Below, in pieces: positions 7,491 through 58,435 of a DNA stretch of 64,000 nucleotides. A program made the position numbers and the translations under genes. The stretch comes from a virus: the IMG/VR virus record IMGVR_UViG_3300043185_000079. One strand, written 5' to 3'. Numbering within the stretch: position 1 is the stretch's first letter; each line of letters begins with the position of its first letter. The notes under the pieces were generated by a model that was given only the letters and a program-made list of their open reading frames with translations, made no database searches and had not been told where the DNA came from.

Positions 7491-7793
7491 ATGTCTGACA
7501 CGCCTGCACGTCGCATCGTGATGTCGAAGTCGGTGGCCCGACAGTGGATCCTCCGACACGCGAAGGTCGAGTACAGGTTCCGAGTGTTCAATCCGGCCGT
7601 GAAGGACTACCCATCGGTGCTGCGCGGGTTCCGAGATGGCCGGGTGAAGCTCGCCGGGGTCTCCCCCCTCCCTGATCTCGGGATCCGGGAGGACTTCGGG
7701 GGCTTCTACGTCTGGTCCTCCGACCTGGGGGCCCTCAAGACGCTTGAGCAGTGGCTGACCAAGCGCGGCCTGGAGACGACCTGGATCTGGTGA
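7491..7793 (+). CDS. hypothetical protein with SVARQW/RHA motif
   Basis: GAGG RBS; N-terminal SKSVARQWILRHA. Confidence 0.6.
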   Translation: MSDTPARRIVMSKSVARQWILRHAKVEYRFRVFNPAVKDYPSVLRGFRDGRVKLAGVSPLPDLGIREDFGGFYVWSSDLGALKTLEQWLTKRGLETTWIW

Positions 7794-7794
7794 G

Positions 7795-8238
7795 ATGGCA
7801 GCAGTTAGAACGCGTCTGGAGAGCTGCTTCACCTACGCGGTGCGGATCGACGATCCGTGTAATCCGCAGTGGAGGTTCACGATCGTCGTTAACCAGGATG
7901 GCACGTGTGGCGTCCGCGACATCCGTTCCGGACACGGAGGAATCTGCGACTCACTCGTCCAGGTGCCAGGAGTCATCCTGGACGAGATCAACGCCGCCAA
8001 GGCGGAGGTGATGAACATCTTGGCACAGACGAGCGCTATAAACGGTACGTTGAGCTTCGTCGCACAGACGAGCCAGTCGATCGTCTTCGCCACGCCGATG
8101 GCGAATACCGACTACCGCGTCTATGTGACTCTCCAGGACTTCATCGACTACCGGATCACCAACAAGACCACCGTGGGCTTCGACATTGAGCTGAATGTGA
8201 CCTACACGGGCACCGTGCAATACGACGTGTTCGTCTGA
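7795..8238 (+). CDS. structural protein with fibre-tip-like C-terminal beta module
   Basis: C-terminus IVFATPMANTDYRV..NKTTVGFDI is paralogous to the C-terminus of 8771..10372. Confidence 0.55.
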   Translation: MAAVRTRLESCFTYAVRIDDPCNPQWRFTIVVNQDGTCGVRDIRSGHGGICDSLVQVPGVILDEINAAKAEVMNILAQTSAINGTLSFVAQTSQSIVFATPMANTDYRVYVTLQDFIDYRITNKTTVGFDIELNVTYTGTVQYDVFV

Positions 8239-8247
8239 ACAGGGTAG

Positions 8248-8562
8248 ATGCAGATGACCAGTAACAAGAACCTGCCGGATCGTCGATCGCTGGACCAACA
8301 GAAGGCACGCCAATTCCTCCGAGAAGCCCGAGACATCGTCGCGGCACCACTGTGGGGAATTGAGACTGCTTCGCTCGTGGATCGTCTGTACCGTGCCGCG
8401 GACCTCTACGAGAAGGGTGCAAGGGAGTTGCGACATGAGGCAAACAAGATCACGCGGACTCCCGCCTTCCTGGACCAAGCCATGAAGAATGTCGAACAAG
8501 TTCTGCGGCCCGTTGAGCTGGTGGCTCGAGCAATTCGGGCCGCCGCGGAAAAGGCTAAGTAA
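8248..8562 (+). CDS. hypothetical protein
   Basis: Helical ORF filling the gap in the operon. Confidence 0.5.
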   Translation: MQMTSNKNLPDRRSLDQQKARQFLREARDIVAAPLWGIETASLVDRLYRAADLYEKGARELRHEANKITRTPAFLDQAMKNVEQVLRPVELVARAIRAAAEKAK

Positions 8563-8606
8563 CATGGCCGTTCAACCCTCTAGTACGATGTTCGTCTGAG
8601 GAGCAC

Positions 8607-8717
8607 ATGTCCCGCACGCAGATCGTCCACCGAATCGTCAAGGAGCGACCCGAGATTCGTCGGGAGTTGCAGGCCGAAATACGCCGACACCTCAACGAGA
8701 GGTACGTGTGGGACTGA
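8607..8717 (+). CDS. 36-aa microprotein (MSRTQIVHRIVKERPEIRRELQAEIRRHLNERYVWD)
   Basis: GAGGAG RBS at 8598-8603; below the ORF-track cutoff; aligns with a segment of 41910..43289. Confidence 0.5.
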   Translation: MSRTQIVHRIVKERPEIRRELQAEIRRHLNERYVWD

Positions 8718-8770
8718 CACTAGAACCCGTGATGCGCACGCTCCGTCAACGCGCGGGGTCCAGGTAACCC

Positions 8771-10372: not shown

Positions 10373-10380
10373 GACACACC

Positions 10381-10956: not shown

Positions 10957-10985
10957 GGCGCGAAACCCGCCCGGCCCCCTTTCGG

Positions 10986-11000: not shown

Positions 11001-11023
11001 AGGAGGCGGCTGACAAGAACCCC

Positions 11024-11887
11024 GTGTCCTCGCCTGATCCAAAGCGCGTTGCCGAAGCCCATCTTCTCAAGAGGGTCGCGGGCGAGGTCATCTTCAAGAA
11101 AGACCGCGGCGGTGATGTCTCGCAGTGGGCGTACGCCGACCACCATCCGTCAAAACGAGACATTCCTGGCGACTTCAACTACTCGCCATCGCACCAGAAG
11201 CCTCTCGCGAAGGTTCTGCGGTCAACCCTGGCCGCTCTCGGTCATGTGCTCTCCGCCCACAACTCTTTCGCTAAGGTCAAGTCAGCCAGGGTCTCCCCCG
11301 ACGGAAGTCTCGGGGGGCGCGGCTACATCATGAAGATCCACGACATGCGCAAGCAGTACATGAACTGCGTCGAGGCGCTGTCGGCTCTCAGCGACACACT
11401 CTACGACGAGGTCAACGCGCCACACTGGTCTCTCCTGTCGCGTCAAGAGGACACGGTCGACAAGGACACGGTGTCCGCGCTCATTCAGGACTCGGAGAAG
11501 ATCAGGGAGGACCCGCAGGAGTGGGCGGAAGACCAGATCGAGGACGAGTTTGAAGATGACGAGGATGAGAGCAACGAAGAGTTCGACCTTGAGGATGCGG
11601 CGGGACAGGAACTGGATATCGTTGATGACAGCGAGGATGGGTGGACTGTAGACGAGGACGTGGACGAAGAGAACCCGCTGCTTCTCGGTGTGATGGGGAA
11701 GACGGCGAGCGCCCGAGACGTCCGACTCGCACTCCTGCCCCAACGCGTTGCGTTGGACTGGATCGTGGCCCACGAGAACCAGATCCCTGGAGGGGTTTCC
11801 GACAAGAGGCTTCCGACTGACTTCGACCACTTGGTCGAGGACAATCACTACGACAAGCTCGAGACGATCGAGGGAGAGCACACCTGA
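11024..11887 (+). CDS. putative internal head protein with RVA motifs
   Basis: PKRVAEAHLLKRVA at N-terminus; acidic tract; GKTAS and PQRVALDW near C-terminus. Confidence 0.6.
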   Translation: MSSPDPKRVAEAHLLKRVAGEVIFKKDRGGDVSQWAYADHHPSKRDIPGDFNYSPSHQKPLAKVLRSTLAALGHVLSAHNSFAKVKSARVSPDGSLGGRGYIMKIHDMRKQYMNCVEALSALSDTLYDEVNAPHWSLLSRQEDTVDKDTVSALIQDSEKIREDPQEWAEDQIEDEFEDDEDESNEEFDLEDAAGQELDIVDDSEDGWTVDEDVDEENPLLLGVMGKTASARDVRLALLPQRVALDWIVAHENQIPGGVSDKRLPTDFDHLVEDNHYDKLETIEGEHT

Positions 11888-18728: not shown

Positions 18729-20672
18729 ATGCCGGCTGAGGGCACGAAGAACGCCATCGCTGGGTCGGCAAGCCCCTCGTCTCTCAAGAAGAACGACGAC
18801 GAGGTCGTGGTGGGCACGGTCGAGCAGCGAAGAGGACGGCCCGAACGCGTGGGCGTGGACACCATGAGAACGGCATCGGCCGGGAACGCTCAGGTGGCCG
18901 AGGATAGTCGTCGAGGGGTTCAAGTTGGAAAACCTTCCCGTGTTGTCACGGGAACCATGCGTGGCCGGGCTGGTCCTCCCAGCTTCCGTGACAAGGTAGC
19001 GGCGGCATGTGGCCCTGGATCGGGGAGTTTCGGTGGCCTTGGCGGCGCTGGGGGCGTTGTCGGCGGGGGAGGAGGGAGCGGCGGGGGAGGAGGGTTCTCT
19101 GGCAACTTCGGACCGGGCAGTGTCGCGCAGGCCAGTTCGGGCAACTTCTACAGTCCCGAACTCAGCACGGACTTCCTGGAGCTTCCACAGTCTCTCAACG
19201 AACAGTGGAACTACTACAGGTTTTTCTACAACAACGAGCCGTTCGTCGGACAGGCTATCGATCTACACACGGAGCTGCCGCTGTCGAAGGTCCGGCTGGC
19301 TCGCCCGAGGGCTCAGACCCGCGAACTCGCCGATCAGGCTCTCCGGTTTTGCGAGAAGTGGATCAACCGGATCGGACTCCTGCAGCGGCTTATTGAGATT
19401 GTTCACGAGTACTACCTGATCGGCGAGGTGTTCATCTTCTGCGAGGACGCGAACCCGGACATGCCGCAGGAGGTCCGACAGAAGGTGGTGCGCGAGGTCA
19501 AGCCCGACGGCTCCCTGGTCGAGACATGGGTGGACTACGATGACGCCGACGCGCGAGCGGTGCGGTGGATGAAGAAGAACTACAGGGGCTGGACGGCCAT
19601 CCGCGTGCTGCCACCAGAGCAAGTCCACATCGAGACATTCCCCTTCACGAGCCAGGCTCTCATCGAGCTAATTCCTGACGCCAAGACGAGGCATGTCATT
19701 AACATGGCGGACCAGGGCGACGAAAGGGCCTGGCGCATTGTCGAATCCATGGACTCCGCCGTCGTGGATGCCGTGCGCGGTGGCGCGAACATCCCCCTGA
19801 GCACCGATCCGGACGGGGGCTCTTTTGTCCACTACATGGCGAACAAGAAGTCCCAGTATGAGCCCAGGGGCCACAGTATCCTGCAGCGATGTTTGAGGGT
19901 CTTGGTATTTTCTGACAAACTGAGACAGGCTCAGACTCAAATTGCTTCGCGGCACATGACCCCGATCCGTCTCGTCTACGCTGAGGACATGGACGAGACG
20001 GACACGGAGGCGCTGCGCGACCAGATTGATCTCGCCTTGCAGGACCCCGACTACTCGATCGTGACCAACTTCCAGGTCACGTGGGAGGAGATGAACAGTA
20101 ACGGCCGTTTGCTTGAGCTGTCCTCAGAGTACGACCTCATCAACCGCCAGCTCTACGCGGGTCTCGGCGTCACCGAGGCGCTCCTCAACGGCGAGTCGAG
20201 CTATTCCGGCGACCGCATCAACCTGGAAGTCATCAACACGAGGTACATGCTCCTCCGCGAGAACATCCAGAACCTCGTGGAGGAGAACTTCTTCAAGCCC
20301 ATGTGTCGACGCATGGGGTTCGTCGAGGAGGATGAGGACGGCAACCTGGAAGTCATCTACCCTCGCCTGTCCTTCACGCGGCTCGCTCTCCGGGACAACC
20401 AGGACACCTTCGACGCGCTGTTCCAGCTCTACCAGAAGGGCTCGCTGGACGTGGAGACCATCCTGGATCTACTGAACATCGACCCCGTGACCGTGCGCGA
20501 GCGCCTGGAGCGGGATTTTGCGACGTATAACGACGCGAACTTCAACGAGGTTCTTCGGTCGATGTACGGACGAGTCGGTGACCAGATCGTGGAGGGGTCG
20601 GACCTGGTGGAGAGGATCGCCAAGACCCTCGGGCTCGAGTACAAGAAGCCCGAGCAGGCTGGCCGTTTCTAG
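18729..20672 (+). CDS. portal protein with Gly-rich N-terminal extension
   Basis: FYNNEPFVGQAIDLHTELP, PRGHSILQRCL, GLGVTEALLNGE, PRLSF portal-like segments; downstream of TerL. Confidence 0.8.
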   Translation: MPAEGTKNAIAGSASPSSLKKNDDEVVVGTVEQRRGRPERVGVDTMRTASAGNAQVAEDSRRGVQVGKPSRVVTGTMRGRAGPPSFRDKVAAACGPGSGSFGGLGGAGGVVGGGGGSGGGGGFSGNFGPGSVAQASSGNFYSPELSTDFLELPQSLNEQWNYYRFFYNNEPFVGQAIDLHTELPLSKVRLARPRAQTRELADQALRFCEKWINRIGLLQRLIEIVHEYYLIGEVFIFCEDANPDMPQEVRQKVVREVKPDGSLVETWVDYDDADARAVRWMKKNYRGWTAIRVLPPEQVHIETFPFTSQALIELIPDAKTRHVINMADQGDERAWRIVESMDSAVVDAVRGGANIPLSTDPDGGSFVHYMANKKSQYEPRGHSILQRCLRVLVFSDKLRQAQTQIASRHMTPIRLVYAEDMDETDTEALRDQIDLALQDPDYSIVTNFQVTWEEMNSNGRLLELSSEYDLINRQLYAGLGVTEALLNGESSYSGDRINLEVINTRYMLLRENIQNLVEENFFKPMCRRMGFVEEDEDGNLEVIYPRLSFTRLALRDNQDTFDALFQLYQKGSLDVETILDLLNIDPVTVRERLERDFATYNDANFNEVLRSMYGRVGDQIVEGSDLVERIAKTLGLEYKKPEQAGRF

Positions 20673-20694: not shown

Positions 20695-20714
20695 CCGATA
20701 CCGTGGGAGAGACC

Positions 20715-22784
20715 ATGGTGCTCCCATCGATCGATCTCCCGACTCGCGAGAGTATCGGACATCCTGCGGACACCCCGGCCAGGGTCGGAATTCTCGTCCA
20801 CATGGCTCGACCCTCCAGGCGCCGCGAGTACAGCATGTCTCGGTGCATGGGGGAGGGTTGCAAGCGGTCCCCTGAGATCGAGTGCATCTGGGCCGACGGT
20901 CGTGGCCGCGCCTGGTTCTGTGAGCGACACTTCGACGCCTGGGCTGCGAAAGACACGGACGGAGGACTCCCGAAGGCTATCGTCAAGCAGCGCAGGGTTC
21001 CTGACGGTGTGGTGGGCGAAAAGTACGGCGAGTATCCCGAAGCCAAGACGGCTGCGGGGGCCCAGTTCATCGTCGTGTCCGCGAAGGGCCCTGGACAGTG
21101 GCCTACCGACCCCGTCCAAGTCATGTCCCGGGAAAGGGCCCTCGACTACCAGTCCGCGGGTGTCGTGATAGCCGGGTTTCGCACGGAGCGCGAGGCTGAG
21201 GAATTCGCAGACAAGATGCGTGACGCTGCTATCGACGTGACGGCGCCCGACGGGACGATCGTGTTCTCCGGGCGTCTCCTCGACTTCTCCGATCTGGCTC
21301 CGCGCCTCGGACTCAGGTTCGTCGACCGAGGGCGGCTTTTGCAGATCCTGCACCGTCCCACGACGGTGATCGGATCCGGCAGGCGCCAGATGACGGTCAC
21401 GCGCCGCGCGGGCAAGACCGCCAAGGCCACCGGATGCAAGACAGGCGACGGTCACAGCGTTGGGCTGTTCATCCCGCTCCCGCGAGATTTGGCCAAGAAG
21501 TTCCCTTCGCTGGGCGAGAATGACGACTCACCCTCCCATGTGACATTCCTGTACATCGGAGATTTCAAGGGAAAACGGAAGCAGGAGCGGCTCGTCGCCG
21601 TCCTACGAAGCTGCTTGCGTCGTTGGTGGCCCTCCTGTCGGGCGACACTCGGAGACTTGGCCTACTTCGATCACCACGACAAGGATCGCCGCGTGCCTCA
21701 CGTCCAGGTCGACTTCGACAAGGACATGAGTGGATTCAAGCACCGGCTGCGACAGGAACTTCACGAGGCCGGCATTGATGTTGGCGACACGTTCCCCGAG
21801 TACAAGCCCCACGTCACACTCGCTTACATGCCGGGCATGGATAGCGAGTGGGAAGGCCCTGTTCCGAAGGGGTCGTGGGACTTCGACACAGTCGAGATCT
21901 GGGGACTTCCGGAGGTCCACAAGATCAAGCTGGGGCCGTCGATTCACAAGATCTCGGAGGAGTGGGTTCTCCAAGTGATTGCTCGTCGTGTCGCGATGAA
22001 GCATTATGCTGCCGGTTGGCCGGACCGCGGCAGAGTAGCATCGGTATCCGTGAACGCGACGCACAGGCGCAACGTCACCCTCGTCAAGTGGCTATCCGAC
22101 TTGGCGCAACATCTCGGCGTCGCAAGGGACACGTACGTCGTGGGTGGGGCCGTGCGAAATTTCATCCTCGGCGAGCCCATCAAGGACGTGGATGTCGTCA
22201 TCGACACCATCAAGGCCGGCAGGGATTCTGAATGGCTGGCGCAGCAGGTGGCCAAGGCGATCCCGGTCCCGACCAACGTGACAACGAACCAGTACGGAGT
22301 GGCCATTCTCACCGTCAAGGGCGACTGGGTCCTCGACGACGAGAACCTCCGCGGCGAGATCATCGAAATCGCCAACGCGCGCAAGGAGAGCTACGGAGGC
22401 GAGACGGGCAAGGGTTATAAGCCGCACATGGTAGAGCCCGCCACCATCGAGGAGGACCTCAGGCGAAGGGATTTCACGGTTAATACGCTGATGTGGAGGT
22501 TGCTCGACTTGGCACACGGACCCGACCGGGCCGAGGTCGTCGATCTGATGGGATGTGGTCGGCGAGATCTTGAGCAGCGAATACTTCGATGCCCGCAGGA
22601 TCCAGATATCACTTTTTCGGATGATCCGACAAGGATGCTACGTCTGGTGCGGTTCATGTCCAGATACAACATGAAAGTATCTCCCGACGTAGCGGCAGCA
22701 GTGCGTCGCAACGCGCCCAAGCTCAAGAATGCTCCTTGGGAGGCCATCGCTTCGGTCCTGATGCAGACTCTGGAGGGACGGTAG
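20715..22784 (+). CDS. polyprotein: Cys/His module + 2H phosphoesterase + CCA-adding/poly(A) polymerase head
   Basis: Two HxT motifs (SHVTF, PHVTL); YVVGGAVR..KDVD, RRRDFTVN and FSDDPTRMLR; domains separated by KTA/RVA motifs. Confidence 0.85.
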   Translation: MVLPSIDLPTRESIGHPADTPARVGILVHMARPSRRREYSMSRCMGEGCKRSPEIECIWADGRGRAWFCERHFDAWAAKDTDGGLPKAIVKQRRVPDGVVGEKYGEYPEAKTAAGAQFIVVSAKGPGQWPTDPVQVMSRERALDYQSAGVVIAGFRTEREAEEFADKMRDAAIDVTAPDGTIVFSGRLLDFSDLAPRLGLRFVDRGRLLQILHRPTTVIGSGRRQMTVTRRAGKTAKATGCKTGDGHSVGLFIPLPRDLAKKFPSLGENDDSPSHVTFLYIGDFKGKRKQERLVAVLRSCLRRWWPSCRATLGDLAYFDHHDKDRRVPHVQVDFDKDMSGFKHRLRQELHEAGIDVGDTFPEYKPHVTLAYMPGMDSEWEGPVPKGSWDFDTVEIWGLPEVHKIKLGPSIHKISEEWVLQVIARRVAMKHYAAGWPDRGRVASVSVNATHRRNVTLVKWLSDLAQHLGVARDTYVVGGAVRNFILGEPIKDVDVVIDTIKAGRDSEWLAQQVAKAIPVPTNVTTNQYGVAILTVKGDWVLDDENLRGEIIEIANARKESYGGETGKGYKPHMVEPATIEEDLRRRDFTVNTLMWRLLDLAHGPDRAEVVDLMGCGRRDLEQRILRCPQDPDITFSDDPTRMLRLVRFMSRYNMKVSPDVAAAVRRNAPKLKNAPWEAIASVLMQTLEGR

Positions 22785-23276: not shown

Positions 23277-23425
23277 TCACCCGTGTCGCCGCCCGACATG
23301 CCGTGCTCCGTTCGGCAACGGGTTACTTCCGCGAGGGCGAGGACATCCTGTTCGATCGCTACAACAAGGCCGGAAGAGGAACCGGACGATGGGCCTCTTC
23401 AACATCTGGAAGTTGTCTGAGGTGA
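23273..23425 (+). CDS. 50-aa leader ORF (MITRVAARHAVLRSATGYF...), possibly a frameshifted N-terminus of the 1678-aa polyprotein
   Basis: ATGA coupling; begins with the RVAARH motif then RSA; overlaps the next ORF in the -1 frame. Confidence 0.5.
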   Translation: MITRVAARHAVLRSATGYFREGEDILFDRYNKAGRGTGRWASSTSGSCLR

Positions 23426-26400
23426 GAGGCCTGCCTCCAAAAACCGGACGTGGAGTCGCGTTTCATGGTACGCGGTCGAAGAATCTCGATCACCTGCGGC
23501 GTTATGGGCTCGTGCCTGGAGCACGCAGTGCGTACACGGACGCCTATAGTAAGTACGACGACGGGCGTCATCTGTTCTTCACAGACAATGAGGACTTGGC
23601 GCGCCATTACGGAGACCTGATTCTGCGATTCCCTTGGCCAAGCGAAGCCAAGCCTGATGTTAACGAATTCGGACGCTATCTTCCTGGACAGTTCGTCTCC
23701 TTGCGGAAAATCCCGCCAGACGAGATCGATGTTTTGCGTGAGGGTACTTGGGAACCTCTCGTTGGAGGCTTGTCGAAGCAGGCCTGCATCATCGTCGGCA
23801 AGGACTTCGACGGCCACCTCTGTCTCCTCAAGAACCGGGATCGGTCGTACGACGTCAAGCTCCAGATCATGCACATGGAGTTCAACGGCGTCGAGATGGC
23901 GTTCGTACTCGATCTCGAGACCGGCTACCTGGAAGGGGTCAACGAGCACGGGATCGGCGTTGTCAACACGACGCTCATGGTGCTTCATGATGAGGCAGAA
24001 GGGCACTCGACCAAAACCAAGGGCAAGACGACGCTCAAGTCGAAGGATGGCCCGAAGATCTTCCACGCCCTCATACAGGACAATCTCCAAGACGCGGTCG
24101 ATGTTCTCGTGAGTTTCCGGGGAGGGATCCGCGGCCACACGTTCGTGGCCGACGGACAGACGCTGCTCAGTATTGAGTGCACTCGAAAGAACCCGGCCCG
24201 GGTACATCATCTCGATCCGGGGAGGGTCAACACGAGGACCAACCATGGCGTCTCATATCCCGAGGCTGGGTACACGCGCGGCGAGGACTATGTCTCGTCC
24301 ATCGTCCGTCGATGGGAGGCGCAGAAGCGGATTCAAGGGGTGAAGCGGCCAGAGGCCGCTGCTCCGGCCCTCGCAACGCTGATCGACGAGGCCGACAGCC
24401 CGTTCAATCCTGTCCGAGTGACTGACAAGATGCGGACGACGAGCCAGCTCCTCATCGATACGAGCACTCCGTCTCTCTACCTCTACCTTATTCCAGGTCA
24501 CGCGCGCGTCACCAAGATTCTCAATCTCCTTCCCGGAGGCAGAGCACCGAAGATTCCCGTCCGGGTGTTTCGCTACCGCAAGCGGATGGAAGACCGAGAC
24601 TTTGAGGACGACGGCCATGAGATGAAGGATGAAGTGGCAGATCCAGGAGGTGACTTGCTGGAGAAACGAACTGCTCGCTATAAGGACAAGAAGACGGTCA
24701 AGACCAAAGACGGCGACGAGCGAGTCATCTACGAGTACGGCCCGCGACAGGTCCTCAACCGCAACAAGGCCAAGGCGGAGCGTATCGAGAATCTGCGCAA
24801 GCAGATGTCGGCTCTCCGTCGGAAGGTCAAGAAGGACCTGGAGTCGTCCGACGACCAGAAACGCGCTGTTGCTCTCGCCGTCGCGCTGATGGACGAAACC
24901 TATGAGCGGCCCGGCAACGAAGCCAGTGCCAGCGAGGGTCACTACGGCGTGACGACGTGGCAGAACCGGCACGTCAAGTTCCGCAACGGAAAGGCCACGA
25001 TCACATACGTCGGGAAGTCTGGAGTCGAGCACAAGAAGGTCGTCGAGACACCGGCAGTCGTGAAGGCTCTCAAGATGCTCTGCAAGGGCCGAGGGAAGGA
25101 TGATCGCCTCATCGACGTCGAGGCGGCTGACGTCAACGAGTTCCTACGCTCGTTCGAGATTACGGCCAAGGACATCCGAGGGTTCCACGCGAACCGCGAG
25201 ATGAAGGACCGTCTCAAGAGGATCCGCCGTGAGGGGCCGGATCTCCCGCGGCCCCTCAAAGATCGAGACAAGATCCTGAAAGAGGAGTTCAAGCAGGCGC
25301 TGGCCGAAACCGCTGAGGCCGTAGGCCATACCGAATCCACGCTGCGCAGCCAGTACCTCGTCCCCGGGCTCGAGGACGAGTACATGAAGGACGGCACCGT
25401 CAGCGACAGCCACGTGAAGTCCGGGGGGGCGGCCCTTCTAGGCGCTCCTGGGGTCCAGGAGCGCCCAGAAGGCGCGCTGAGGGTCGCCGCCACCCGAGGC
25501 ACACCGACGGAGCGGAGGATCCTGGCGAACGCCCTGCTTGCCCCGGTGCTCGTAGTGCGCGATCGCCGCTGGTGGCTCGACGAGGCGCCGTCCCTCTACC
25601 GCCTGGCCCGTGACCACGAGCGGCCTAGACCTGTCATCGACGGTCTCCGGTTCGACCCCGACCTGTTCGCGATGCTCTGGTACGAGGACGAGGACGGGAA
25701 CAGGTTGCCCGAACCGCCCATTGGGGACCTCGCAATTCCGGAGGACTCCCATACACAGCATTCGAGGTTCCCCAACGTGCTGCGGCACACCATCCTGTTG
25801 CTTAATGACGACGGGACGTCGTCGAGCCTCGCGGCTGGGGAAAGTTCCTTTCCCTCTGATCTCGTGACGCAGATGGTTCGCAGCGGCGACTGGGACACCG
25901 CAGACGCAATCATGGTTGCCGGCCAGGCCTGCGAGCGATGCCTCAACGTCCTGCTCCACCATTACGGGATCGGGGATGGCTACCCGTTCGGGTCCGAGGA
26001 CTATTGGCGGGCGAACACAGTCTGTTCGATGTGCGAGGACATCGGCCGTCGAATGGCGACGAAGTCTCCCGCCGAGAAGGAGGATGAGAACGTCGAGAAG
26101 ATGCTACGGCCGGAACCGAAGAAGAAGCCTCCGCGCTACGACCTCCGCAACAACAGAACGCTGGAGGACCGGGACGAGGACCTGGAGGGTATGGGCGCAG
26201 GAGATCGTGGGGATCGAGACTTGAGTCTCAAGTGGAACAAGGTCGCTCATCGGGTGGCGTTCCGGTGGCTGGCCGTTCCCCTCGCGCCCGCTCCTCTGCG
26301 TGTGGCAATGCGGCGCATCGCCAGGCAGTTCCCCTCCGAGTTCCAGGACGAGGTGGCACACCAGCGGTTCACGCATCCAGAGACGCGCAACTCAGTCGGG

Positions 26401-28425
26401 TTTGGGTCGTTGCCTAGCGAGGAGCAGTCGAAGATCTACAAGCGGTGGAAAAGCAAGGCGCGGGAAGACAAGGCTCCACCAGAGGATGCCGAGAAATCCG
26501 AGAAAGGCAAGGAGGATGACGTCGAGCGTGAACTCGACGAGGCACGCGATCGGGTCGATTCTCTGGAGGATAAGGTTGATAAGGCCAAGGACCAGATCAA
26601 GGAATCGCGCGAAAACATCAAGGGGATCAAGAATCTGCTAGAGAAGGCTGGCGAGACGGCCCGAGGACAGCTCGAAGGAAAGCTGCGCGAGGAGGTCTCC
26701 AAGATGCGGAAGGCCGAGGACGCGCTGGAGGAAGTCACCGACGAATTGGAGGCGGCGCGCAAGCGTGTCGATCAGCTCAAGGCGGAGCGTAAGGCTCCCA
26801 CGAGCCGCGAAGACAAACGACGCGAGGATGAAGAGAAGCGCCGCAAGGAACGTGCCGAGGAGACTCTGGACGAGGTGCGCGATGCGGTGCGGGGGATGGT
26901 GTCGAAGGACTCCGACATCCCCGAGGACGTTCGGGCACAGATTGAGACCGCCTTCGCCAACTTGAGCGAGGAGCAAGTAGAGGATTTTTCCGAGGCATTC
27001 CAGAAGTCGTTGGGGAAGCTCGTCAGAACGGACGCTTCGTCCGAGGAGGCTGCGAACCTGGCCAACGCCTCGGTCCGCGCCGATCTGAGTGAGATTGAGG
27101 ATCCCGCAGAGCTGGCACGCACAGTTGCCGAAGTCGCGTACGCACGCAACGTGGTGACCAATCCTCTCGTCGTGGGTGGGAAGCCGCTCGGACAGACGAA
27201 GATGGACGATGCTGGCTACTCCGGTCGTGCTATGGAATCGTTCCGTCAGTTTCAGCGTCTCAGCCCTGCTCTCCGCGAGAGTGCGGCGGAAAAGATCGCG
27301 GAAGAGCTTCGCGGTCTCGACGAGGACTCCGATAAGGCACAAGAGCTACAGGCGATTCTCACAGGCATCAACACGGCTCATATCGCGGACACAGGCCACG
27401 CTTTGCCGGGTCGACCGCAGCCGAACAAAGGTGCCGCGGCTCTCATCCGTCGCATGGTGGAGAACGGTCAAGCCGAGACGATGTTCAAGCCGGTCGAGGA
27501 CTTCTTCGCCGACGACAGCCGCGCCGCGATGCAAAAGGCGCTCTCGGAAATGGACGACGCGGAGGTTGCTGACTTCGTGATCGGAGACGACGGGGATCAC
27601 CCATTCGGTAAGCTCCGCGAGGCCATGCAGGAGAAGGGCGCCAGTGAGTACAAGCAGCTCATCAAGGACTTCCTGATCCAAGATTTCATGAGTGACATCT
27701 GGGGTGATCGGGCCGTACGCGATTACATGGAGTCCGCTGGTTTCGCCGACTTCGATAATCCGGAGGCCAGGGCGCAGTTGCTTCGGGACACGAGGTACGC
27801 AACTGCACCCGAGGCAGACATGCAGGCGATCGCCAGGGCGCAGGCGGCGATCGCGGCCGGTCAGAAACCTGATCCAGAGGATGAGGAGCGTGCTCGAAAT
27901 TTCCTCGATCCAGAGACGGGGGGCGGGATCCGTGGGAAACTCCGCAAGCTCATGGAGATCTTGCAATCCAAGGTCAAGAAGCGTGTTGTCACCCCCGCGA
28001 CCGCGGTGATCAACCACTTCCTGGAGACGGGCGAGGCCGAGGTCCTCCACCAGGAGACCCTTCCACATCCTGACGAGGGCCGGGGCGGGGACACGGAGGC
28101 CAAGGAAGACGAGGGACACGGGTTGGGCGACGTGTGGAAAACTGACGAGGGGAACTGGCGCGCCAAGAATCTCGACGGAGTGCCCAAGACTTTCGATACG
28201 CGAGAGAAGGCCCAAGCATACGCCAAGGGCGGCAAGGACCGCAGGAAGCCATCGCGCGGCAGCGAGGCCCCTGGCGAGGAATTCTCGGCCGAGTTCACCG
28301 TGCCCGTCGAAGAACGAGGACCGACGAGGTTTGCCAACCATGTCGCGAACGCTTGGCTGGCCCAAGTGCGCAAATGCCACCCAGACGATCCGGGGCGTCC
28401 GCGAGTGGTTTTTGATACGGCTTGA
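23389..28425 (+). CDS. 1678-aa multi-enzyme polyprotein (ART-fold, Ntn-hydrolase, topoisomerase IB, Zn module, coiled coil)
   Basis: FHGT..GL..FFT..A..Y..IPPDEI; CIIV..KNRD..GVNEHG..TNH; RPGN..GKSG..KDIR..GHT..SQY. Confidence 0.85.
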   Translation: MGLFNIWKLSEVRGLPPKTGRGVAFHGTRSKNLDHLRRYGLVPGARSAYTDAYSKYDDGRHLFFTDNEDLARHYGDLILRFPWPSEAKPDVNEFGRYLPGQFVSLRKIPPDEIDVLREGTWEPLVGGLSKQACIIVGKDFDGHLCLLKNRDRSYDVKLQIMHMEFNGVEMAFVLDLETGYLEGVNEHGIGVVNTTLMVLHDEAEGHSTKTKGKTTLKSKDGPKIFHALIQDNLQDAVDVLVSFRGGIRGHTFVADGQTLLSIECTRKNPARVHHLDPGRVNTRTNHGVSYPEAGYTRGEDYVSSIVRRWEAQKRIQGVKRPEAAAPALATLIDEADSPFNPVRVTDKMRTTSQLLIDTSTPSLYLYLIPGHARVTKILNLLPGGRAPKIPVRVFRYRKRMEDRDFEDDGHEMKDEVADPGGDLLEKRTARYKDKKTVKTKDGDERVIYEYGPRQVLNRNKAKAERIENLRKQMSALRRKVKKDLESSDDQKRAVALAVALMDETYERPGNEASASEGHYGVTTWQNRHVKFRNGKATITYVGKSGVEHKKVVETPAVVKALKMLCKGRGKDDRLIDVEAADVNEFLRSFEITAKDIRGFHANREMKDRLKRIRREGPDLPRPLKDRDKILKEEFKQALAETAEAVGHTESTLRSQYLVPGLEDEYMKDGTVSDSHVKSGGAALLGAPGVQERPEGALRVAATRGTPTERRILANALLAPVLVVRDRRWWLDEAPSLYRLARDHERPRPVIDGLRFDPDLFAMLWYEDEDGNRLPEPPIGDLAIPEDSHTQHSRFPNVLRHTILLLNDDGTSSSLAAGESSFPSDLVTQMVRSGDWDTADAIMVAGQACERCLNVLLHHYGIGDGYPFGSEDYWRANTVCSMCEDIGRRMATKSPAEKEDENVEKMLRPEPKKKPPRYDLRNNRTLEDRDEDLEGMGAGDRGDRDLSLKWNKVAHRVAFRWLAVPLAPAPLRVAMRRIARQFPSEFQDEVAHQRFTHPETRNSVGFGSLPSEEQSKIYKRWKSKAREDKAPPEDAEKSEKGKEDDVERELDEARDRVDSLEDKVDKAKDQIKESRENIKGIKNLLEKAGETARGQLEGKLREEVSKMRKAEDALEEVTDELEAARKRVDQLKAERKAPTSREDKRREDEEKRRKERAEETLDEVRDAVRGMVSKDSDIPEDVRAQIETAFANLSEEQVEDFSEAFQKSLGKLVRTDASSEEAANLANASVRADLSEIEDPAELARTVAEVAYARNVVTNPLVVGGKPLGQTKMDDAGYSGRAMESFRQFQRLSPALRESAAEKIAEELRGLDEDSDKAQELQAILTGINTAHIADTGHALPGRPQPNKGAAALIRRMVENGQAETMFKPVEDFFADDSRAAMQKALSEMDDAEVADFVIGDDGDHPFGKLREAMQEKGASEYKQLIKDFLIQDFMSDIWGDRAVRDYMESAGFADFDNPEARAQLLRDTRYATAPEADMQAIARAQAAIAAGQKPDPEDEERARNFLDPETGGGIRGKLRKLMEILQSKVKKRVVTPATAVINHFLETGEAEVLHQETLPHPDEGRGGDTEAKEDEGHGLGDVWKTDEGNWRAKNLDGVPKTFDTREKAQAYAKGGKDRRKPSRGSEAPGEEFSAEFTVPVEERGPTRFANHVANAWLAQVRKCHPDDPGRPRVVFDTA
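23785..24600 (+). other. Ntn-hydrolase domain (C45/C59-like) starting at Cys133
   Basis: KQA|CIIVG..KNRD, EGVNEHGIGVVN, RTNHG. Confidence 0.7.
24676..25420 (+). other. type IB DNA topoisomerase domain
   Basis: Catalytic pentad R (RPGN), K (GKSG), R (KDIR), H (GHT), Y (SQY) is intact. Confidence 0.85.
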
Positions 28426-29274: not shown

Positions 29275-29904
29275 ATGAAACGTACAGCAGACGCAGGAAA
29301 CTGGCAGGCCCGCGGACAAGAGTTCGCGGTGGGGCAAGCTGTGCGTCTCGTCAATGGCAGCCCAACCGACGAGGGTCGCGTCACCGCTGTCTGGCCTGGA
29401 ATCGGATGCGTCGATGTGCAGTGGCCACACACGTCGTATCGCCACTTGGTTGAGGATCTCCAGATTGTCAACCCGGGCGAGGACGAGTTCGTCGCGCCCA
29501 TGCACGAGGACGTGCCGGGAGGGCCCCCGTCCTCGGCGTGGGTCTCGCAAGGGGCCCCTCAGACGAACGAGATCACGCACGAGGACCCACGAGTCGAGTT
29601 CGTCCACGACATCGCGGGCAAAGTGGCATCTCAACCGTCTGCGCAGCGGGTGGCGATCGCGTTCGTGAAGCATTCTCTTTACTGGCACGCTCGGGACCGG
29701 AAGTACCGCGTCAGCCGGGACGAACACGCAGAGGGCCGGTATAGATGCCCCACCCGTGGGTGCGAACAGATGTTGCGCCGTGCAACCTACAAGATGGAGA
29801 ACGGATCTCCGATCAAGCTGCTCGCCTGCGGCTCGTGCTTGTTCATGATCCGCGAGCATGACGTACTCTCTGACCACTGCACTCCACATGAGGAGACCTG
29901 CTAG
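29275..29904 (+). CDS. hypothetical protein with RVA motif and C-terminal zinc ribbon
   Basis: MKRTA; GKVASQPSAQRVAIAF; CPTRGC..CGSC. Confidence 0.65.
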   Translation: MKRTADAGNWQARGQEFAVGQAVRLVNGSPTDEGRVTAVWPGIGCVDVQWPHTSYRHLVEDLQIVNPGEDEFVAPMHEDVPGGPPSSAWVSQGAPQTNEITHEDPRVEFVHDIAGKVASQPSAQRVAIAFVKHSLYWHARDRKYRVSRDEHAEGRYRCPTRGCEQMLRRATYKMENGSPIKLLACGSCLFMIREHDVLSDHCTPHEETC

Positions 29905-29905
29905 C

Positions 29906-35243: not shown

Positions 35244-36122
35244 ATGTCGAACGGAATCTCCAACGAGGTCAAGCAAAAGCTGATCAGCGAGTACATCAAG
35301 ACCCCAGCCGGTCGTGCCAAGCTCGCTGCCAGCCTCACCCAGCCTCTCCGCCTGCGGAGAGACTACACATCGGTCGGCCGCAAGACCTTCCTGGTCGAGC
35401 AGCTGCCGGACGGCGCCCTCCCCATCTACGACAAGGACCCGGATGTCACCGCGTTCATCGTCGGCGAGGAAGGGCAGAACATCGTGGCGGTCACCAAGCC
35501 GCGCCGCGTCATCTTCCCGCTGTTCGAGATCGCCTCGAACCCGGAGATCCCGCTCACCCAGATCAAGGAGCGCCGTTTCGACCTCATCGAGCGCGCCCAG
35601 GACCTGGCCCGAGCGCAGATCCAGGCGGCGGAGGATGAGCGCGTTTTCGCGGTCCTCGATGCCATCGCAACCAACGGCTTCGACTCCGTCCCGGGCGGGA
35701 CCAACCCCGACATCCCCGTGGTGGCGCCGATCTCGGGAGCGGTGCTCGCGGATGCCTTCGCCCTGATCGAGCGGCATGATCTCCGGGTCGCACGCGTCTA
35801 CATGAACGCGCGCGATTACGCGGACATCCGCAAGTTCGGGCGAGACATCCTCGACATCGAGAGCCAGGCCACGTTGCTCAAGACCGGCCTCCAGGCGACC
35901 CTCTGGGGCGCCCAGGTCATCACGAGCCGCATCGTGCCGGCGGGCACGGTGTACGTGTGCTGCGAGCCTGAGATGTTCGGTCGCATTCCGGTGCGTACCG
36001 AACTCACCGTGCTCTCGGCGGACGACCCGAAGGCGCGAACCATCGGGTTCTCGGTGTTCGAGAATCTCGGCATCGGGGCCTACAACCCGCGTGGTCTGAC
36101 ACGGCTCACCGTCACCCGCTAG
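35244..36122 (+). CDS. major capsid protein (HK97 fold)
   Basis: 292 aa; EIASNPEIPL..ERAQDLARAQIQAAED, YMNARDYADIRKF, GLQATLWGAQV; strong codon bias; followed by a terminator. Confidence 0.8.
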   Translation: MSNGISNEVKQKLISEYIKTPAGRAKLAASLTQPLRLRRDYTSVGRKTFLVEQLPDGALPIYDKDPDVTAFIVGEEGQNIVAVTKPRRVIFPLFEIASNPEIPLTQIKERRFDLIERAQDLARAQIQAAEDERVFAVLDAIATNGFDSVPGGTNPDIPVVAPISGAVLADAFALIERHDLRVARVYMNARDYADIRKFGRDILDIESQATLLKTGLQATLWGAQVITSRIVPAGTVYVCCEPEMFGRIPVRTELTVLSADDPKARTIGFSVFENLGIGAYNPRGLTRLTVTR

Positions 36123-49980: not shown

Positions 49981-50205
49981 ATGTCCGGAACAAGGAAAGT
50001 ACGACTCACGCCACGCGAGGACGAGCTGTTCGCCATCGCTTGGTATCTCATTCAGGCCCAGAACGGCTCCGAGAAGGACCGTCACATTCAGTGGGCGCGC
50101 TACCACCTGTGGCGCGTTACGCAGGGACTCTTCGTTCATCAAGATCTGGTGGGCAACATCCACCATGTTTTCTGCGAGGCGTTCGGGGAGGGCTGTGATG
50201 ACTAG
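49981..50205 (+). CDS. hypothetical protein
   Basis: GGAG RBS; overlaps the rtcB start. Confidence 0.45.
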   Translation: MSGTRKVRLTPREDELFAIAWYLIQAQNGSEKDRHIQWARYHLWRVTQGLFVHQDLVGNIHHVFCEAFGEGCDD

Positions 50206-56240: not shown

Positions 56241-56243
56241 TCT

Positions 56244-56258
56244 CGGTTTTCGCTTGAT
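56244..56258 (+). promoter_or_regulatory. CGGT-N8-TAT motif variant
   Basis: CGGTTTTCGCTTGAT, 22 nt before ATG 56280. Confidence 0.5.
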
Positions 56259-56279
56259 GGCCCCCGCACTGGTGAGGCC

Positions 56280-56690
56280 ATGCCACGTTTGCGAAGAGCT
56301 GGAAGCCAGGCAGGGTGGGCTCTGATCTCCGGCGGGGTGAATGCCGCCAGGGTCGACGTTCACCGCCTCCACCAGATCGTGGGGAAGGTTCTGCGTCTCG
56401 TCGAGCAGAGCAAGGATCGCGAGCACATCTATCAGGTCGCAGGTGACGTCATCCTGGGCATCCCCCAGATTCTCGATCGTCTGGAACAGCAGCTCGACGA
56501 GACCGGCTACGCCTTATCAATCATGGGGAAGGACCATCTCAAGGACCGCCTCCCTCTTTCTCGTCGCACGCGAGTGGACGAGACCGTCGAGGGAGCGCCA
56601 GCGTTCAGCGTGTCAATGTTGAAGGACTCGGCACGTCGAGTGGCGGAACGACACATCGCGCGTCGAGTGGATCGACGCGGGAGGTCGTAG
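56280..56690 (+). CDS. putative internal head protein
   Basis: LRRA|GS N-terminus; C-terminal SARRVAERHIARRV. Confidence 0.65.
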   Translation: MPRLRRAGSQAGWALISGGVNAARVDVHRLHQIVGKVLRLVEQSKDREHIYQVAGDVILGIPQILDRLEQQLDETGYALSIMGKDHLKDRLPLSRRTRVDETVEGAPAFSVSMLKDSARRVAERHIARRVDRRGRS

Positions 56691-58435
56691 TGCCCGACTT
56701 CGGGATCCGCAAGCGAGCAATGGCCCAGGACAGCACGGATCCTGTGCCCGAGGACGTCATCCGCGAGGAGATCCGCGCCGCGGCCGAGATTCTCAGGACG
56801 GCTTACCGATCCGGGTGGCAGGAATGGCCCGGGTGGAAGACCGTTGTCGATGAGAAGAGCGAGAAGGGCATCTTCCCGCGCGACACTGAGGACAGCAGCA
56901 CGGAACGGGGACAGAGCAGGCTCGATCATGCGTGGCCTGTCCAGCTTCCGCAGCCTCGGGAGAAGGAACGCGCGTTGCCACTTCCCTCCGACTTCGACAA
57001 GAAACGCGAGAAGCGAATTGGCCCGACTTACTACAACAAGAACCGAAAGGTCCCGTACCGCACACATCCAGAGAAGGGGGACGAGTACGGCCATCCCGTG
57101 AAACTGGATTACAACTATGACAGGCGACGCCAGGAGGTGACCGCCGGGGATACGCGGGAGGAAGACGGATCTCCGGAGGAGCGAGAGGCCGCCGGGTTGT
57201 TTCCCGCCAAGCATCAGCAAAACCAGCGTGGCCAATCGCGTGTCTACTACAAGCAGTGGTACCTGCGTAACCGCGAGCCCATCAAACGCAGGGAGAGAGT
57301 CAAGTACCAGACTAGGCTCAAGCACGATCCGCGCGACAAGCTCCGTCGGAAGTATCGGCGGCTGTACCCCCACAGATACAAGCGGCGAGGACTCGGGCCG
57401 TCGACGCCCGCCGAGCGATCTCGAGAGTGGCGCGAGGAGAAGGCAAAAGAGCGACAAGCCTCGGTGTATCACGCAGGGCTTAAGGCGCTGGCGAGCGCCA
57501 TGGAGATCCTTGGGATCGACCGAGTTGCTGCGAACTGGCCCGTTGACTGGGGGACACACTACAAGAAGGTCGAGCCGCCCGAACAACTTGACCAGAACCA
57601 TCCACCAGCACAGCCGCGCAGCACGACGCCGCGCAGCGATCCGTCCAAACAGAAGGGGGAATCTCTCCGTGCACCCGATCTCGACCGCAAGCACCAAAAG
57701 GGCTTGAAGTGGCAGATCGAGCCCAGGGCTCCCGGGGGCGCCTACCCGATCCGCGAGGTGAACAACCCGGGGAATGGCTCGGGCAAGGTCATCCCGATGT
57801 GGGGAGACTTCGTCAACAACACGCAACAGATGCCGGACGGGCGGCAGGACCGGTATGTCCGAAACGATAACTTCGATGTGAAGACGGCCGCCACGCTCGG
57901 TGAAATCCTTGCCCGCGTCGACAGGAAAATCCGAGCGCGTGCCGTCGGCCTCGATCCCCAGCTTCAGCGGACCGACACGAAGAATTGGATCTGGACGTGG
58001 CGTGTTGGGAAGCACGCGGTCAAGGTTCAGGCGTTCAAGCGCGGCACCGCGTCGAACTTCGACAAGGTGAATCTCAGGGTCTCGTGTAGCTGCCCGTTCT
58101 GGCAGTGGTGGGGTCCCGAGCATTGGGGGAAACGGGACGACTACCTGCGCGGGGAACCCCGTGGCACGGCAACCCCCCCAATGATTCGCGATCCTTTCCA
58201 CTGGCGGCCGGTGTGCAAGCACGCCTATGCCGTTCTCCGTCGTTCGCAGAAATTCTTCGTGAGGCCGGAGAAGTCGCCTCTACGCCATCTGGCTCGGTTT
58301 TCAGCCGATAGTCCCGAGTCGGTCGTGATCGAGTGTTTGCCCACGCCTTCGCCAGAGCAAGTAGCTCTTGCCGCGGTCACGCGCGAGATCGGTCAGAGGG
58401 TCGCCCGCAGGTATCTTGGCGAGGAGGGGGTCTGA
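56690..58435 (+). CDS. SWIM zinc-finger protein with RVA/KTA motifs
   Basis: VSCSCPFW..VCKH SWIM motif; VKTAA precedes that domain; C-terminal GQRVARRYL. Confidence 0.7.
   Translation: MPDFGIRKRAMAQDSTDPVPEDVIREEIRAAAEILRTAYRSGWQEWPGWKTVVDEKSEKGIFPRDTEDSSTERGQSRLDHAWPVQLPQPREKERALPLPSDFDKKREKRIGPTYYNKNRKVPYRTHPEKGDEYGHPVKLDYNYDRRRQEVTAGDTREEDGSPEEREAAGLFPAKHQQNQRGQSRVYYKQWYLRNREPIKRRERVKYQTRLKHDPRDKLRRKYRRLYPHRYKRRGLGPSTPAERSREWREEKAKERQASVYHAGLKALASAMEILGIDRVAANWPVDWGTHYKKVEPPEQLDQNHPPAQPRSTTPRSDPSKQKGESLRAPDLDRKHQKGLKWQIEPRAPGGAYPIREVNNPGNGSGKVIPMWGDFVNNTQQMPDGRQDRYVRNDNFDVKTAATLGEILARVDRKIRARAVGLDPQLQRTDTKNWIWTWRVGKHAVKVQAFKRGTASNFDKVNLRVSCSCPFWQWWGPEHWGKRDDYLRGEPRGTATPPMIRDPFHWRPVCKHAYAVLRRSQKFFVRPEKSPLRHLARFSADSPESVVIECLPTPSPEQVALAAVTREIGQRVARRYLGEEGV

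Follow-up and report, generated by a model that had tools for sequence, protein, structure and literature searches.

A short helical motif recurring at termini and domain junctions of unrelated giant-phage proteins: a candidate tag for loading proteins into the head

At least 10 unrelated proteins of a giant-phage lineage, most of them encoded next to the capsid genes, bear, at their ends or domain junctions, a short basic helix of ~10 residues with the core [R/K]-V-A-x-x-[Y/F/H/W]-[L/M/I/V]. We describe this tag in the window, the whole stretch of 64,000 nucleotides of viral DNA that was analyzed, and in its relatives. The fuller consensus is [P/S]-[S]-[A/P]-x-[R/K]-V-A-[S/A/R]-[R/K/A]-[Y/F/H/W]-[L/M/V/I]-[K/R], often with Ser-Pro ahead of it and a basic tail behind it, and the conserved positions are spaced i, i+1, i+4, and i+5, a helical pattern. 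Comparison of orthologs shows the motif to be under selection and portable. We consider the chances about even that it is a portable docking peptide which binds a component of the procapsid interior, with its carriers being enclosed in the head and able to exit with the DNA. The lineage adds the tag, single or in tandem, to either terminus of unrelated proteins or to the linkers between their domains; the tag would most likely bind one conserved component of the procapsid interior, the tagged proteins would thereby be enclosed in the head at assembly, and they could then leave with the DNA at infection. The role in head assembly, the binding partner, and the injection of the carriers are what we infer from the pattern described below.

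A preliminary description of this DNA had picked out ten strings, and all of them are present in genes of the plus strand. It had located them by gene starts, from which the motif positions differ, and the gene that it placed at 20715 is called g20703 here. The sites are as follows, with profile scores in bits.

7530..7550, plus strand: possible N-terminal variant tag of g7491 (residues 14-20, SVARQWI; 1.2 bits; uncertain)
11045..11080, plus strand: N-terminal tag of g11024 (residues 8-14, RVAEAHL, with a second RVA at residues 17-19; 11.7 bits)
11744..11764, plus strand: second tag-like site of g11024 (residues 241-247, RVALDWI, 41 residues from the C-terminus; 1.8 bits)
21948..22007, plus strand: tandem junction tags of g20703 (KISEEWV at residues 416-422 and RVAMKHY at residues 429-435, the latter motif at 21987)
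23282..23302, plus strand: N-terminal tag of ORF 23273 (RVAARHA; 7.3 bits)
26251..26271, plus strand: internal junction tag of g23389 (residues 955-961, RVAFRWL; 7.5 bits)
28339..28359, plus strand: degenerate tag near the C-terminus of g23389 (residues 1651-1657, HVANAWL, 21 residues from the end)
29647..29667, plus strand: internal tag of g29275 (residues 125-131, RVAIAFV; 12.2 bits)
56637..56687, plus strand: C-terminal tag of g56280 (residues 120-126, RVAERHI, and a degenerate second copy; 13.3 bits)
58397..58432, plus strand: C-terminal tag of g56690 (residues 570-576, RVARRYL, 5 residues ahead of the stop; 7.2 bits)

In the coding frames of the window, RVA..[HWFY] occurs 11 times on the plus strand and not once on the minus strand. 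The strict motif is found nine times in a 67-gene set, against 1.04 expected from within-protein shuffling, and none of 5,000 shuffles reached nine. Such recurrence could be chance or composition in the Arg/Ala/Val-rich proteins of a GC-rich genome, picked post hoc, and a look-elsewhere scan over ~1.15 million patterns of the same shape speaks for this: 57% of shuffled proteomes contain an equally extreme pattern (~10% when the scan is limited to patterns with at least eight occurrences), and the real proteome of the window holds others, such as ILD.[LIVMA] with 11 occurrences against 1.4. The in-window counts, taken alone, are compatible with a post hoc pick. The comparison with shuffled controls that the preliminary description had proposed as a check is thereby favorable in the raw counts and unfavorable in the scan. 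It is favorable again when a profile built from relatives only is used, which gives seven window matches of at least 6 bits against 0.05 expected from shuffles, with no match of that strength in the terminase, the RtcB ligase, the PAPS reductase-like protein, or the homing endonuclease.

We judge the motif to be real because it is conserved in orthologs and replicates in relatives, not because of the window counts. For replication we used two near-complete related records, G004 (619 kb) and G005 (290 kb, 47% GC). With the motif fixed beforehand, G004 contains 17 copies against 2.9 in shuffles and G005 contains 6 against 1.45, and the relatives-trained profile has 8 matches in G004 against 0 in shuffles. 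Across ~1 Mb of related loci, regular-expression matches number 179 on the plus strand and 12 on the minus strand. Tag sites are kept in orthologs with only 35-55% overall identity, and all of the strings singled out earlier are conserved in orthologs or closer to canonical there. Pure chance, which the window shuffles and the look-elsewhere scan left open, is ruled out by the orthologs, the replication, and the profile tests: the prespecified motif is enriched even in the 47% GC relative, profile matches far exceed shuffles, and terminal bias and gene fission, described below, point the same way. The chance explanation is contradicted by the ortholog and replication tests, and we give it almost no credence.

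Two other trivial sources were rejected. A repeated DNA element is ruled out by codons that vary from site to site, and the regions around the sites have neither nucleotides in common nor extended protein homology. The carriers had been called unrelated, and pairwise BLAST of 14 of them found no similarity outside the tag, with the exception of one subgroup whose members have a second module of ~50-60 residues in common; paralogy of the carriers is ruled out apart from that subgroup. Three further strict matches, at g56690 residue 278, major head protein residue 181, and g63521 residue 76, are probably chance or structural, and the first of them is not conserved.

In an alignment of 15 g29275 sequences (34-65% identity), V126 and A127 show no variation and R125 reaches at least 90% conservation, and RVA is near-invariant in ~30 orthologs of ~37% identity; the tag separates a hypervariable linker from a Zn-ribbon-like domain. 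The tag of g56280 is kept in ~20 orthologs of ~40% identity in related loci, and the family comprises 116 homologs with the tag, many of which have a tandem copy. The N-terminal tag of g11024 reads PDP[KN]RVAxxY[LM] or KVAKQYL in five orthologs (47-55% identity), and its second site, a weaker variant, reads RIAQKW or RMAVQWI; a single-sequence locus search with g11024 gave nothing. At the C-terminus of g56690, orthologs have RVLRRYL, and two copies in tandem, ARVAQKHQ...RRVLRRYL, are present in the one from G004. The g7491 site is SVARQWL in the G004 ortholog, but there the whole protein is 73% identical. Searches of Pfam and PHROGs gave no match for most carriers, a megablast of 20 kb against phage records gave none, and for g56280 Foldseek returned generic helical hairpins only and a protein atlas search returned no match.

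The earlier claim that the motif sits at termini or domain boundaries holds. Among 31 instances, 11 lie within 20 residues of a protein end, against 4.4 expected (P=0.006), and the sites, often tandem, comprise both kinds of terminus as well as internal junctions. In relatives in which a fused gene is split, the upstream piece stops just past the motif, and what are junction tags in g23389 and g20703 stand there at the C-termini of separate ORFs. The g20703 tags lie between a 2H phosphoesterase and a nucleotidyltransferase domain, with limits taken from Pfam (Acb1 matches to the 2H phosphoesterase were weak and subthreshold), and they align with the C-terminus of a standalone 2H protein in G004, which reads HRVAARYLAEIRRLSE and then stops; in two related loci, L082 and L083, the first copy has the canonical form KVAxxW[LI]. 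The giant multidomain protein g23389 contains a topoisomerase IB, and its internal junction tag is kept in a subset of orthologs; in loci L043 and L052 only 4 residues separate the tag from the stop of the homologous ORF (...RVARSYLNLRG, stop). Its degenerate tag near the C-terminus is RVAQVWL, KVAELWL, or RVAQAWL in orthologs. ORF 23273 is, on sequence comparison, the frameshifted true N-terminus of g23389: the orthologs in L082 and L083 have ...ARVAARHMAAQDD in frame with the giant ORF, and tblastn matched frame 1 and then frame 3 in the window. AlphaFold2 models of two carriers place the tag in or beside a low-confidence linker, outside the confidently folded domains. In g56280 it is a separate terminal helix beyond such a linker, and in g29275 residues 121-134 have a pLDDT of <50 and are flanked by two confident domains. 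These models show that the tag is not predicted to belong to the confidently folded domains of its carriers.

Junction sites of this kind could also mean that the tag is mainly a recognition and cleavage site for the prohead protease, which would cut multidomain precursors into enzymes, with the helix as a specificity element and not a loading signal; docking may coexist with this. The candidate enzyme is encoded beside several of the carriers.

29858..32884, plus strand: prohead protease with intein (PHROG 18299, head maturation protease)

The Hint/intein matches were subthreshold and a LAGLIDADG match just over threshold. That the Pfam search assigned the protease no family weighs against this explanation. 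RVA fits [K/R]-x-A, Ser and Ala are the commonest residues at position +3, which yields V-A-S/A, and the tags coincide exactly with domain junctions of giant proteins and with the sites at which genes are split in relatives. A second [K/R]-x-A often follows within ~10 residues, a pattern too common for statistics here. Against cleavage, many tags lie 4-10 residues from the stop or 4-16 from the start, so close to the protein ends that a cut there would take off almost nothing. Protease substrates are usually bound in extended form, whereas the tag has helical spacing (i, i+1, i+4, i+5) and is modelled as a helix in g56280. We regard cleavage as the main function of the tag as rather unlikely.

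The genes of the head module that bear on docking are the following.

18729..20672, plus strand: portal protein (PHROG 16240, E 3e-34)
32932..34365, plus strand: acidic scaffold candidate of 477 residues (23% Asp+Glu), between the protease and the decoration/head genes
35244..36122, plus strand: major head protein of 292 residues (PHROG 2522, E 1e-50)
35784..35804, plus strand: motif-like segment of the major head protein (residues 181-187, RVARVYM), probably not a tag

In G004, four of the seven profile matches outside the major head protein lie inside a 29-kb head module (P~2e-4), and in many relatives a g56280 homolog is encoded no more than 10 kb away from the gene for the head protein. 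Among the carriers are small helical proteins, a 2H phosphoesterase, nucleotidyltransferases of the CCA/poly(A) and Pol-beta types, and the giant topoisomerase IB-containing protein; the phosphoesterase, the CCA/poly(A)-type nucleotidyltransferase, and the giant protein are of kinds that phages are known to inject. One G004 protein bears a tag at each end. About half of the G004 matches fall in genes distant from the head module, whose products have no known function. That dispersal would suit a short linear motif read by a hub other than the capsid, be it a chaperone or unfoldase adaptor of phage or host, a degradation machinery, a membrane that binds amphipathic helices, or an import system of an intracellular compartment. 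Many such signals take the form of a terminal, tethered, basic amphipathic helix, and the proposed link between tag and virion is indirect. On the other side, carriers are strongly enriched in the block from portal to head protein, the invariant Val-Ala favors a specific protein pocket over lipid binding, one carrier (g56280) is predicted to be a small helical-hairpin protein of scaffold-like architecture, and the window yielded no candidate for an alternative hub. We find a noncapsid hub doubtful.

If the tag docks inside the procapsid, the major head protein is the best candidate for its receptor, with the acidic scaffold and the portal as alternatives. We favor it because it is unusually invariant across relatives: it is 96% and 90% identical to its counterparts in G004 and G005, against proteome medians of 62% and 39%, although such conservation has other possible causes. 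More than 570 contigs encode a near-identical head protein. Its own RVARVYM is probably not a tag but part of a conserved fold element (HDLVVTKIVMN in phage G, HDLTVAYIFVN in Tunturi_5) that phage G has without the motif. The profile scan found no strong tag copy in the protease, the portal, or the scaffold candidate; the weak look-alikes SIASRHM in the portal and RIASAML in the scaffold candidate are, by estimate and not by computation, within chance for a relaxed pattern. The scaffold candidate had no family match at E<=0.001, with weak subthreshold Pfam matches only. The head modules of the related, cultured phage G and Tunturi_5 are without the motif, and their virion data are therefore not transferable to this lineage; the paper on phage G describes neither a cleavage nor a targeting motif.

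Were the tag a head-loading signal, sequence alone would define what an uncultured giant-phage clade, one common in environmental metagenomes, injects as protein cargo, and would point to the enzymes that are active at the very start of infection. Whereas the T4 signal is N-terminal, this one would serve for loading from either terminus and from internal junctions; it would also tie scaffold-type capsid docking to cargo loading and would give a concrete reason why the head protein is so extremely conserved. With a position-independent tag of 10-12 residues, foreign proteins could also be conveniently enclosed in HK97-fold shells. At its widest, this reading is one that we put forward tentatively, as possible rather than probable: across the clade, a position-independent code of ~10 residues may load a changing arsenal into the capsid for injection (2H phosphoesterase, CCA- and Pol-beta-type nucleotidyltransferases, topoisomerase IB), and the head protein may be frozen at 90-96% identity, against ~40% for the genome, because dozens of cargoes use the same pocket on its inner surface.

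Several known systems resemble parts of this arrangement. In the giant phage SPN3US, many head and ejection proteins are substrates of gp245 with processed propeptides, for which prohead targeting has been proposed (PMC10052503, PMC7411985). Those propeptides are N-terminal and defined by mass spectrometry and a cleavage motif, save for the self-cleaved propeptide of the protease, whereas the tag of this lineage is a conserved helix defined by sequence. In T4, the capsid-targeting sequence (CTS) of the internal proteins IPI-III and Alt is a strictly N-terminal stretch of 10-20 residues removed by gp21, common to unrelated proteins, enzymes included, that the phage loads into the prohead and later ejects along with the DNA (PMC7411985). 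The preliminary description had proposed a portable tag of this kind. What survives is a portable peptide on otherwise unrelated proteins, including enzymes, that is concentrated in the head block and has a prohead protease encoded nearby; the T4 form does not, since the tag occurs at N-termini, C-termini, and junctions, often in tandem, and ends 4-13 residues ahead of the stop in 20 of 83 unique instances. Its sequence is also unlike that of the T4 signal, MKTYQEFIAE, as judged without an alignment.

Encapsulin cargo-loading peptides are short and terminal and attach a variety of enzymes to the inside of a shell with the HK97 fold. The lineage tag resembles them in being a short peptide on diverse enzymes with an HK97-fold shell, and differs in its sequence and in that the shell is that of a tailed phage with portal and terminase. 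The scaffolding protein of phage 80alpha and CpmB of SaPI1, two otherwise different proteins, have in common a helix-and-hook at the extreme C-terminus, an 11-residue amphipathic helix with a short tail, which binds the N-arm and the A/P cleft of the HK97-fold capsid protein (PMC5644958). For those proteins capsid binding is established, whereas the lineage tag is known from sequence and models; it is also carried by at least 10 families, including enzymes and giant multidomain proteins, and is found at N-termini and junctions as well. The tails of the tag, basic but variable (LNLRG, TRRQ, NKLMRR), lack the RIIK hook. The C-terminal subset, ending 4-10 residues ahead of the stop, has the same architecture of an extreme C-terminal helix and short tail, and g56280 is modelled as a small helical hairpin like small scaffolds. 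In form, the tag is not a T4-type CTS, and its C-terminal version looks more like the scaffold helix-and-hook.

The window has a GC content of 62%, belongs to a tailed phage and carries nearly all of its genes on the + strand. We assign it, on sequence comparison, to an uncultured giant-phage lineage because relatives of its major head protein (MCP) sit on large contigs and because two related near-complete records measure 619 kb (G004, rated 92% complete) and 290 kb (G005, rated 93% complete, 47% GC). Viral contigs yielded more than 570 MCP relatives; identity is 89-98% for the top 80, many of which are on contigs of 140-620 kb. The nearest in the phage collection were those of a 485-kb uncultured phage (89%), Tunturiibacter phage Tunturi_5 (48%) and Bacillus phage G (gp27, 39%).

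Head-assembly genes and downstream genes of the window (g plus a number names a gene by its start nucleotide)
16024-17916: large terminase, head-assembly block
18729-20672: portal, head-assembly block
20703-22784: g20703, 693 aa, 2H phosphoesterase fused to a poly(A)/CCA-type nucleotidyltransferase
23389-28425: g23389, 1678 aa, topoisomerase IB core
29275 (start): g29275, 209 aa, head-assembly block
29858-32884: head maturation protease with intein
32932-34365: scaffold candidate, 477 aa, very acidic
At the position of the phage G decoration gene: 221-aa protein, head-assembly block
35244-36122: major head protein, 292 aa
36220-37203: LAGLIDADG/HNH-type homing endonuclease
37847-39343: PAPS reductase-like protein
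50165-51592: RtcB RNA ligase

The topoisomerase IB catalytic core occupies residues 457-651 of the multi-domain g23389, whose gene lies between those of portal and protease, and the Acb1 match of the 2H phosphoesterase is weak and sub-threshold. The protease gene is interrupted by an apparent intein with a LAGLIDADG endonuclease (Hint/intein Pfam matches below the Pfam cut-offs, LAGLIDADG just above), and no Pfam protease family matched its extein parts. The 32932-34365 ORF, overlooked by a simple GC3-based gene call, is likely the scaffold: it lies between the protease and the decoration and head genes and encodes 23% Asp+Glu with a long poly-Glu/Asp run, without a family match. The homing endonuclease gene is directly 3' of the head protein gene, and the PAPS reductase-like and RtcB genes follow further downstream.

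A short basic motif, RVA..[HWFY], had been proposed in the preliminary description to recur in unrelated proteins of the window. It is present 11 times in + strand coding frames and not once on the - strand, and all ten strings originally cited were found, although the coordinates attached to them are gene starts and the motifs themselves lie elsewhere. Since codons differ from site to site, this is a protein-level feature, and a repeated DNA element was rejected. In a 67-gene set the motif was observed 9 times against 1.04 in within-protein shuffles, and none of 5,000 shuffles reached 9. The motif was, however, picked after the sequence had been read. When ∼1.15 million similarly shaped patterns were considered, at least one was as extreme or more so in 57% of shuffled proteomes (∼10% when limited to patterns seen at least 8 times), and the real proteome holds others, such as ILD.[LIVMA] (11 versus 1.4). 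Statistics from the window alone are thus ambiguous as to whether the motif recurs more than expected by chance.

Evidence independent of the window was obtained from its relatives. With the motif [RK]VA..[HWFY][LIVMFY] fixed beforehand, G004 gave 17 matches versus 2.9 in shuffles and the 47% GC G005 gave 6 versus 1.45. The check proposed with the preliminary description, a profile search against shuffled controls, bore the motif out: a profile HMM trained on 79 instances from relatives only, at a threshold of at least 6 bits, matched the window 7 times versus 0.05 per shuffled proteome and G004 8 times versus none in shuffles. In related loci totalling ∼1 Mb, 179 occurrences of the pattern were counted on the gene strand and 12 on its complement.

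The sites are also retained in orthologs. Nearly all of ∼30 g29275 orthologs (31 aligned rows, ∼37% identical overall) have RVAxx[YFH][VML]K[KQ][AS] at this segment; an alignment of 15 shows no variation at V126 and A127 and conservation of at least 90% at R125, and these residues come immediately after a hypervariable linker whose length differs between sequences. Some 20 orthologs (∼40% identical) keep the C-terminal site of g56280, as does a family of 116 homologs. Relatives of g11024 have PDP[KN]RVAxxY[LM] at the N-terminal site and R[IM]AxxW at the second; HVANAWL, a weak site close to the g23389 C-terminus, corresponds to RVAQVWL, KVAELWL or RVAQAWL in its orthologs; and at the C-terminal site of g56690 two orthologs have RVLRRYL, preceded in G004 by another copy. 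In G004 a 2H phosphoesterase occurs as a separate protein, and its C-terminal end (...HRVAARYLAEIRRLSE, then stop) aligns with g20703 at residue 429. A short ORF at 23273 (MITRVAARH...) has an ortholog counterpart (...ARVAARHMAAQDD) in frame with the giant ORF and is the true N-terminus of g23389. Within 23273-23412 of the window the ortholog match switches frames, from 1 to 3, around 23323-23412; this is a frameshift that is either genuine or an artefact of the assembly. Because orthologs, replication, profile and strand tests concur where window counts alone were ambiguous, we take the motif to recur more than by chance; a chance or compositional origin, contradicted by both ortholog conservation and replication, is highly improbable. 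Two strings were set aside. The strict match at g56690 residue 278 is not conserved in orthologs and is probably not a tag, and neither, probably, is RVARVYM in the MCP, a fold element whose counterpart is HDLVVTKIVMN in phage G and HDLTVAYIFVN in Tunturi_5.

The consensus of 83 unique non-MCP instances is [P/S]-[S/M/L]-[A/P/S]-x-[R/K]-V-A-[S/A/R]-[R/A/K/L]-[Y/F/H/W]-[L/M/V/I]-[K/R], with hydrophobic positions (V, A, aromatic, L/M) at i, i+1, i+4 and i+5 and basic residues on the opposite face, the pattern of a short, basic and amphipathic helix that is often capped by Ser-Pro. The suggested placement at termini or domain boundaries holds: 20 of the 83 end 4-13 residues before the stop, others lie at residues 4-16 and the rest at domain junctions of giant proteins. 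Strict matches within 20 residues of a protein end number 11 of 31 in the window, G004 and G005 together, with 4.4 expected (P=0.006). Tandem tags 8-13 residues apart occur in g56280 homologs (RVAERHMAKRVAQRHLGRK, then stop) and in g56690, g20703 and g11024. A 431-aa protein of G004 (308841-310136; L127:8841-10136, - strand) is tagged at both ends, with RVAERYL at residue 12 and RVARRFL 5 residues before the stop.

Junction tags appear to be terminal tags caught in fusions. The site at g23389 residue 955 is the C-terminus of a separate ORF in two related loci, L043 and L052 (...RVARSYLNLRG, then stop), homologs of the g29275 N-terminal domain finish with the tag in L038 and L049, and the standalone G004 2H phosphoesterase (212 aa, 262955-263593) lacks the nucleotidyltransferase fusion of g20703. 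In a 1820-aa G004 protein the nucleotidyltransferase domain ends at residue 233 and the tag begins at 236.

The carriers had been described as non-homologous and are indeed unrelated outside the tag by BLAST, except that a subgroup has in common a second module of ∼50-60 residues just downstream. This portable module, ∼EFxxWxxxxRFPNPxxxxxxVxFxSLPxxEQxKIYxxW (window ∼26332-26487, g23389 residues 982-1033), has no family match and occurs in at least eight G004 proteins, often near the N-terminus (among them those at 206257, 305611, 315590, 415057, 518895 and 520809); the tag precedes about half of the copies. Tag-like strings outside the core pattern, SIASRHM in the portal (residues 406-412, nt ∼19944-19964, identical in G004 and G005) and RIASAML in the scaffold candidate (about residues 127-133 from the 32932 start), may be chance resemblances.

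Five of the eight G004 profile matches fall in the 29-kb head module, 4.7% of that genome (4 of 7 without the MCP, P about 2e-4), and in many relatives the genes for g56280 homologs are found no more than 10 kb from that of the head protein. Roughly half of the carriers in G004 are scattered, with function unassigned. In the window no profile match of at least 6 bits fell in the terminase, RtcB ligase, PAPS reductase-like protein or homing endonuclease. A role at a non-capsid hub, with the tag serving a chaperone, degradation, membrane or compartment-import function, would leave the head-module clustering unexplained, and we regard it as unlikely.

In the g29275 model an SH3-like barrel and a Zn-ribbon-like domain, both confident, are joined by a region of pLDDT <50 that includes the invariant tag. 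The g56280 model, which looks like a small scaffold-type protein, is a long helical hairpin followed by a low-confidence linker (103-115) and a separate C-terminal helix (113-134) holding the tag. Invariance without packing against the carrier, as seen for the tag in these models, is what a motif acting in trans typically shows.

Most likely, then, the tag is a docking peptide that would recruit its carrier into the head during assembly. It could also be, or include, a prohead protease site, a role that may coexist with docking: the tag marks junctions and its +3 position is often Ser or Ala. As a sole role this fits less well, as a cut at many near-terminal tags would take off almost nothing and the conserved positions are spaced as in a helix. 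For a docking peptide, the MCP would be the best candidate receptor because the tag is the same in relatives at 39% median identity, so that its receptor is expected to be equally conserved. Identities to G004/G005 are 96%/90% for the MCP, 73%/68% for the portal, 69%/56% for the terminase and 62%/39% for the median protein, and the MCP appears to be under unusually strong constraint for a capsid protein. The acidic scaffold candidate could attract the basic helix but is poorly conserved (51% identity to G004, no match in G005 at E 1e-8).

The capsid-targeting role first put forward is thus partly supported: docking on head-module carriers fits, a strict N-terminal position as in T4 does not. 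The T4 capsid targeting sequence, an N-terminal peptide of 10-20 residues, attaches to the prohead core and is removed by gp21 (PMC7411985); the tag is not strictly N-terminal and has no established cleavage. The shell here is not an encapsulin. The tag was absent from the head modules of phage G and Tunturi_5 that we searched, and no description of it was found in the literature searched. The tag is a clearly defined signal that lends itself to testing, with a predicted function, in an uncultured clade of giant phages that is widespread. The 80alpha scaffolding protein and SaPI1 CpmB have in common a C-terminal helix-and-hook, in which an 11-residue amphipathic helix plus a 5-residue tail engages the N-arm and A/P cleft of the capsid protein (PMC5644958); tags at C-termini share this architecture but lack the RIIK hook. 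The tag would act like a capsid-loading or scaffold-docking peptide, yet it misses defining features of each known family.
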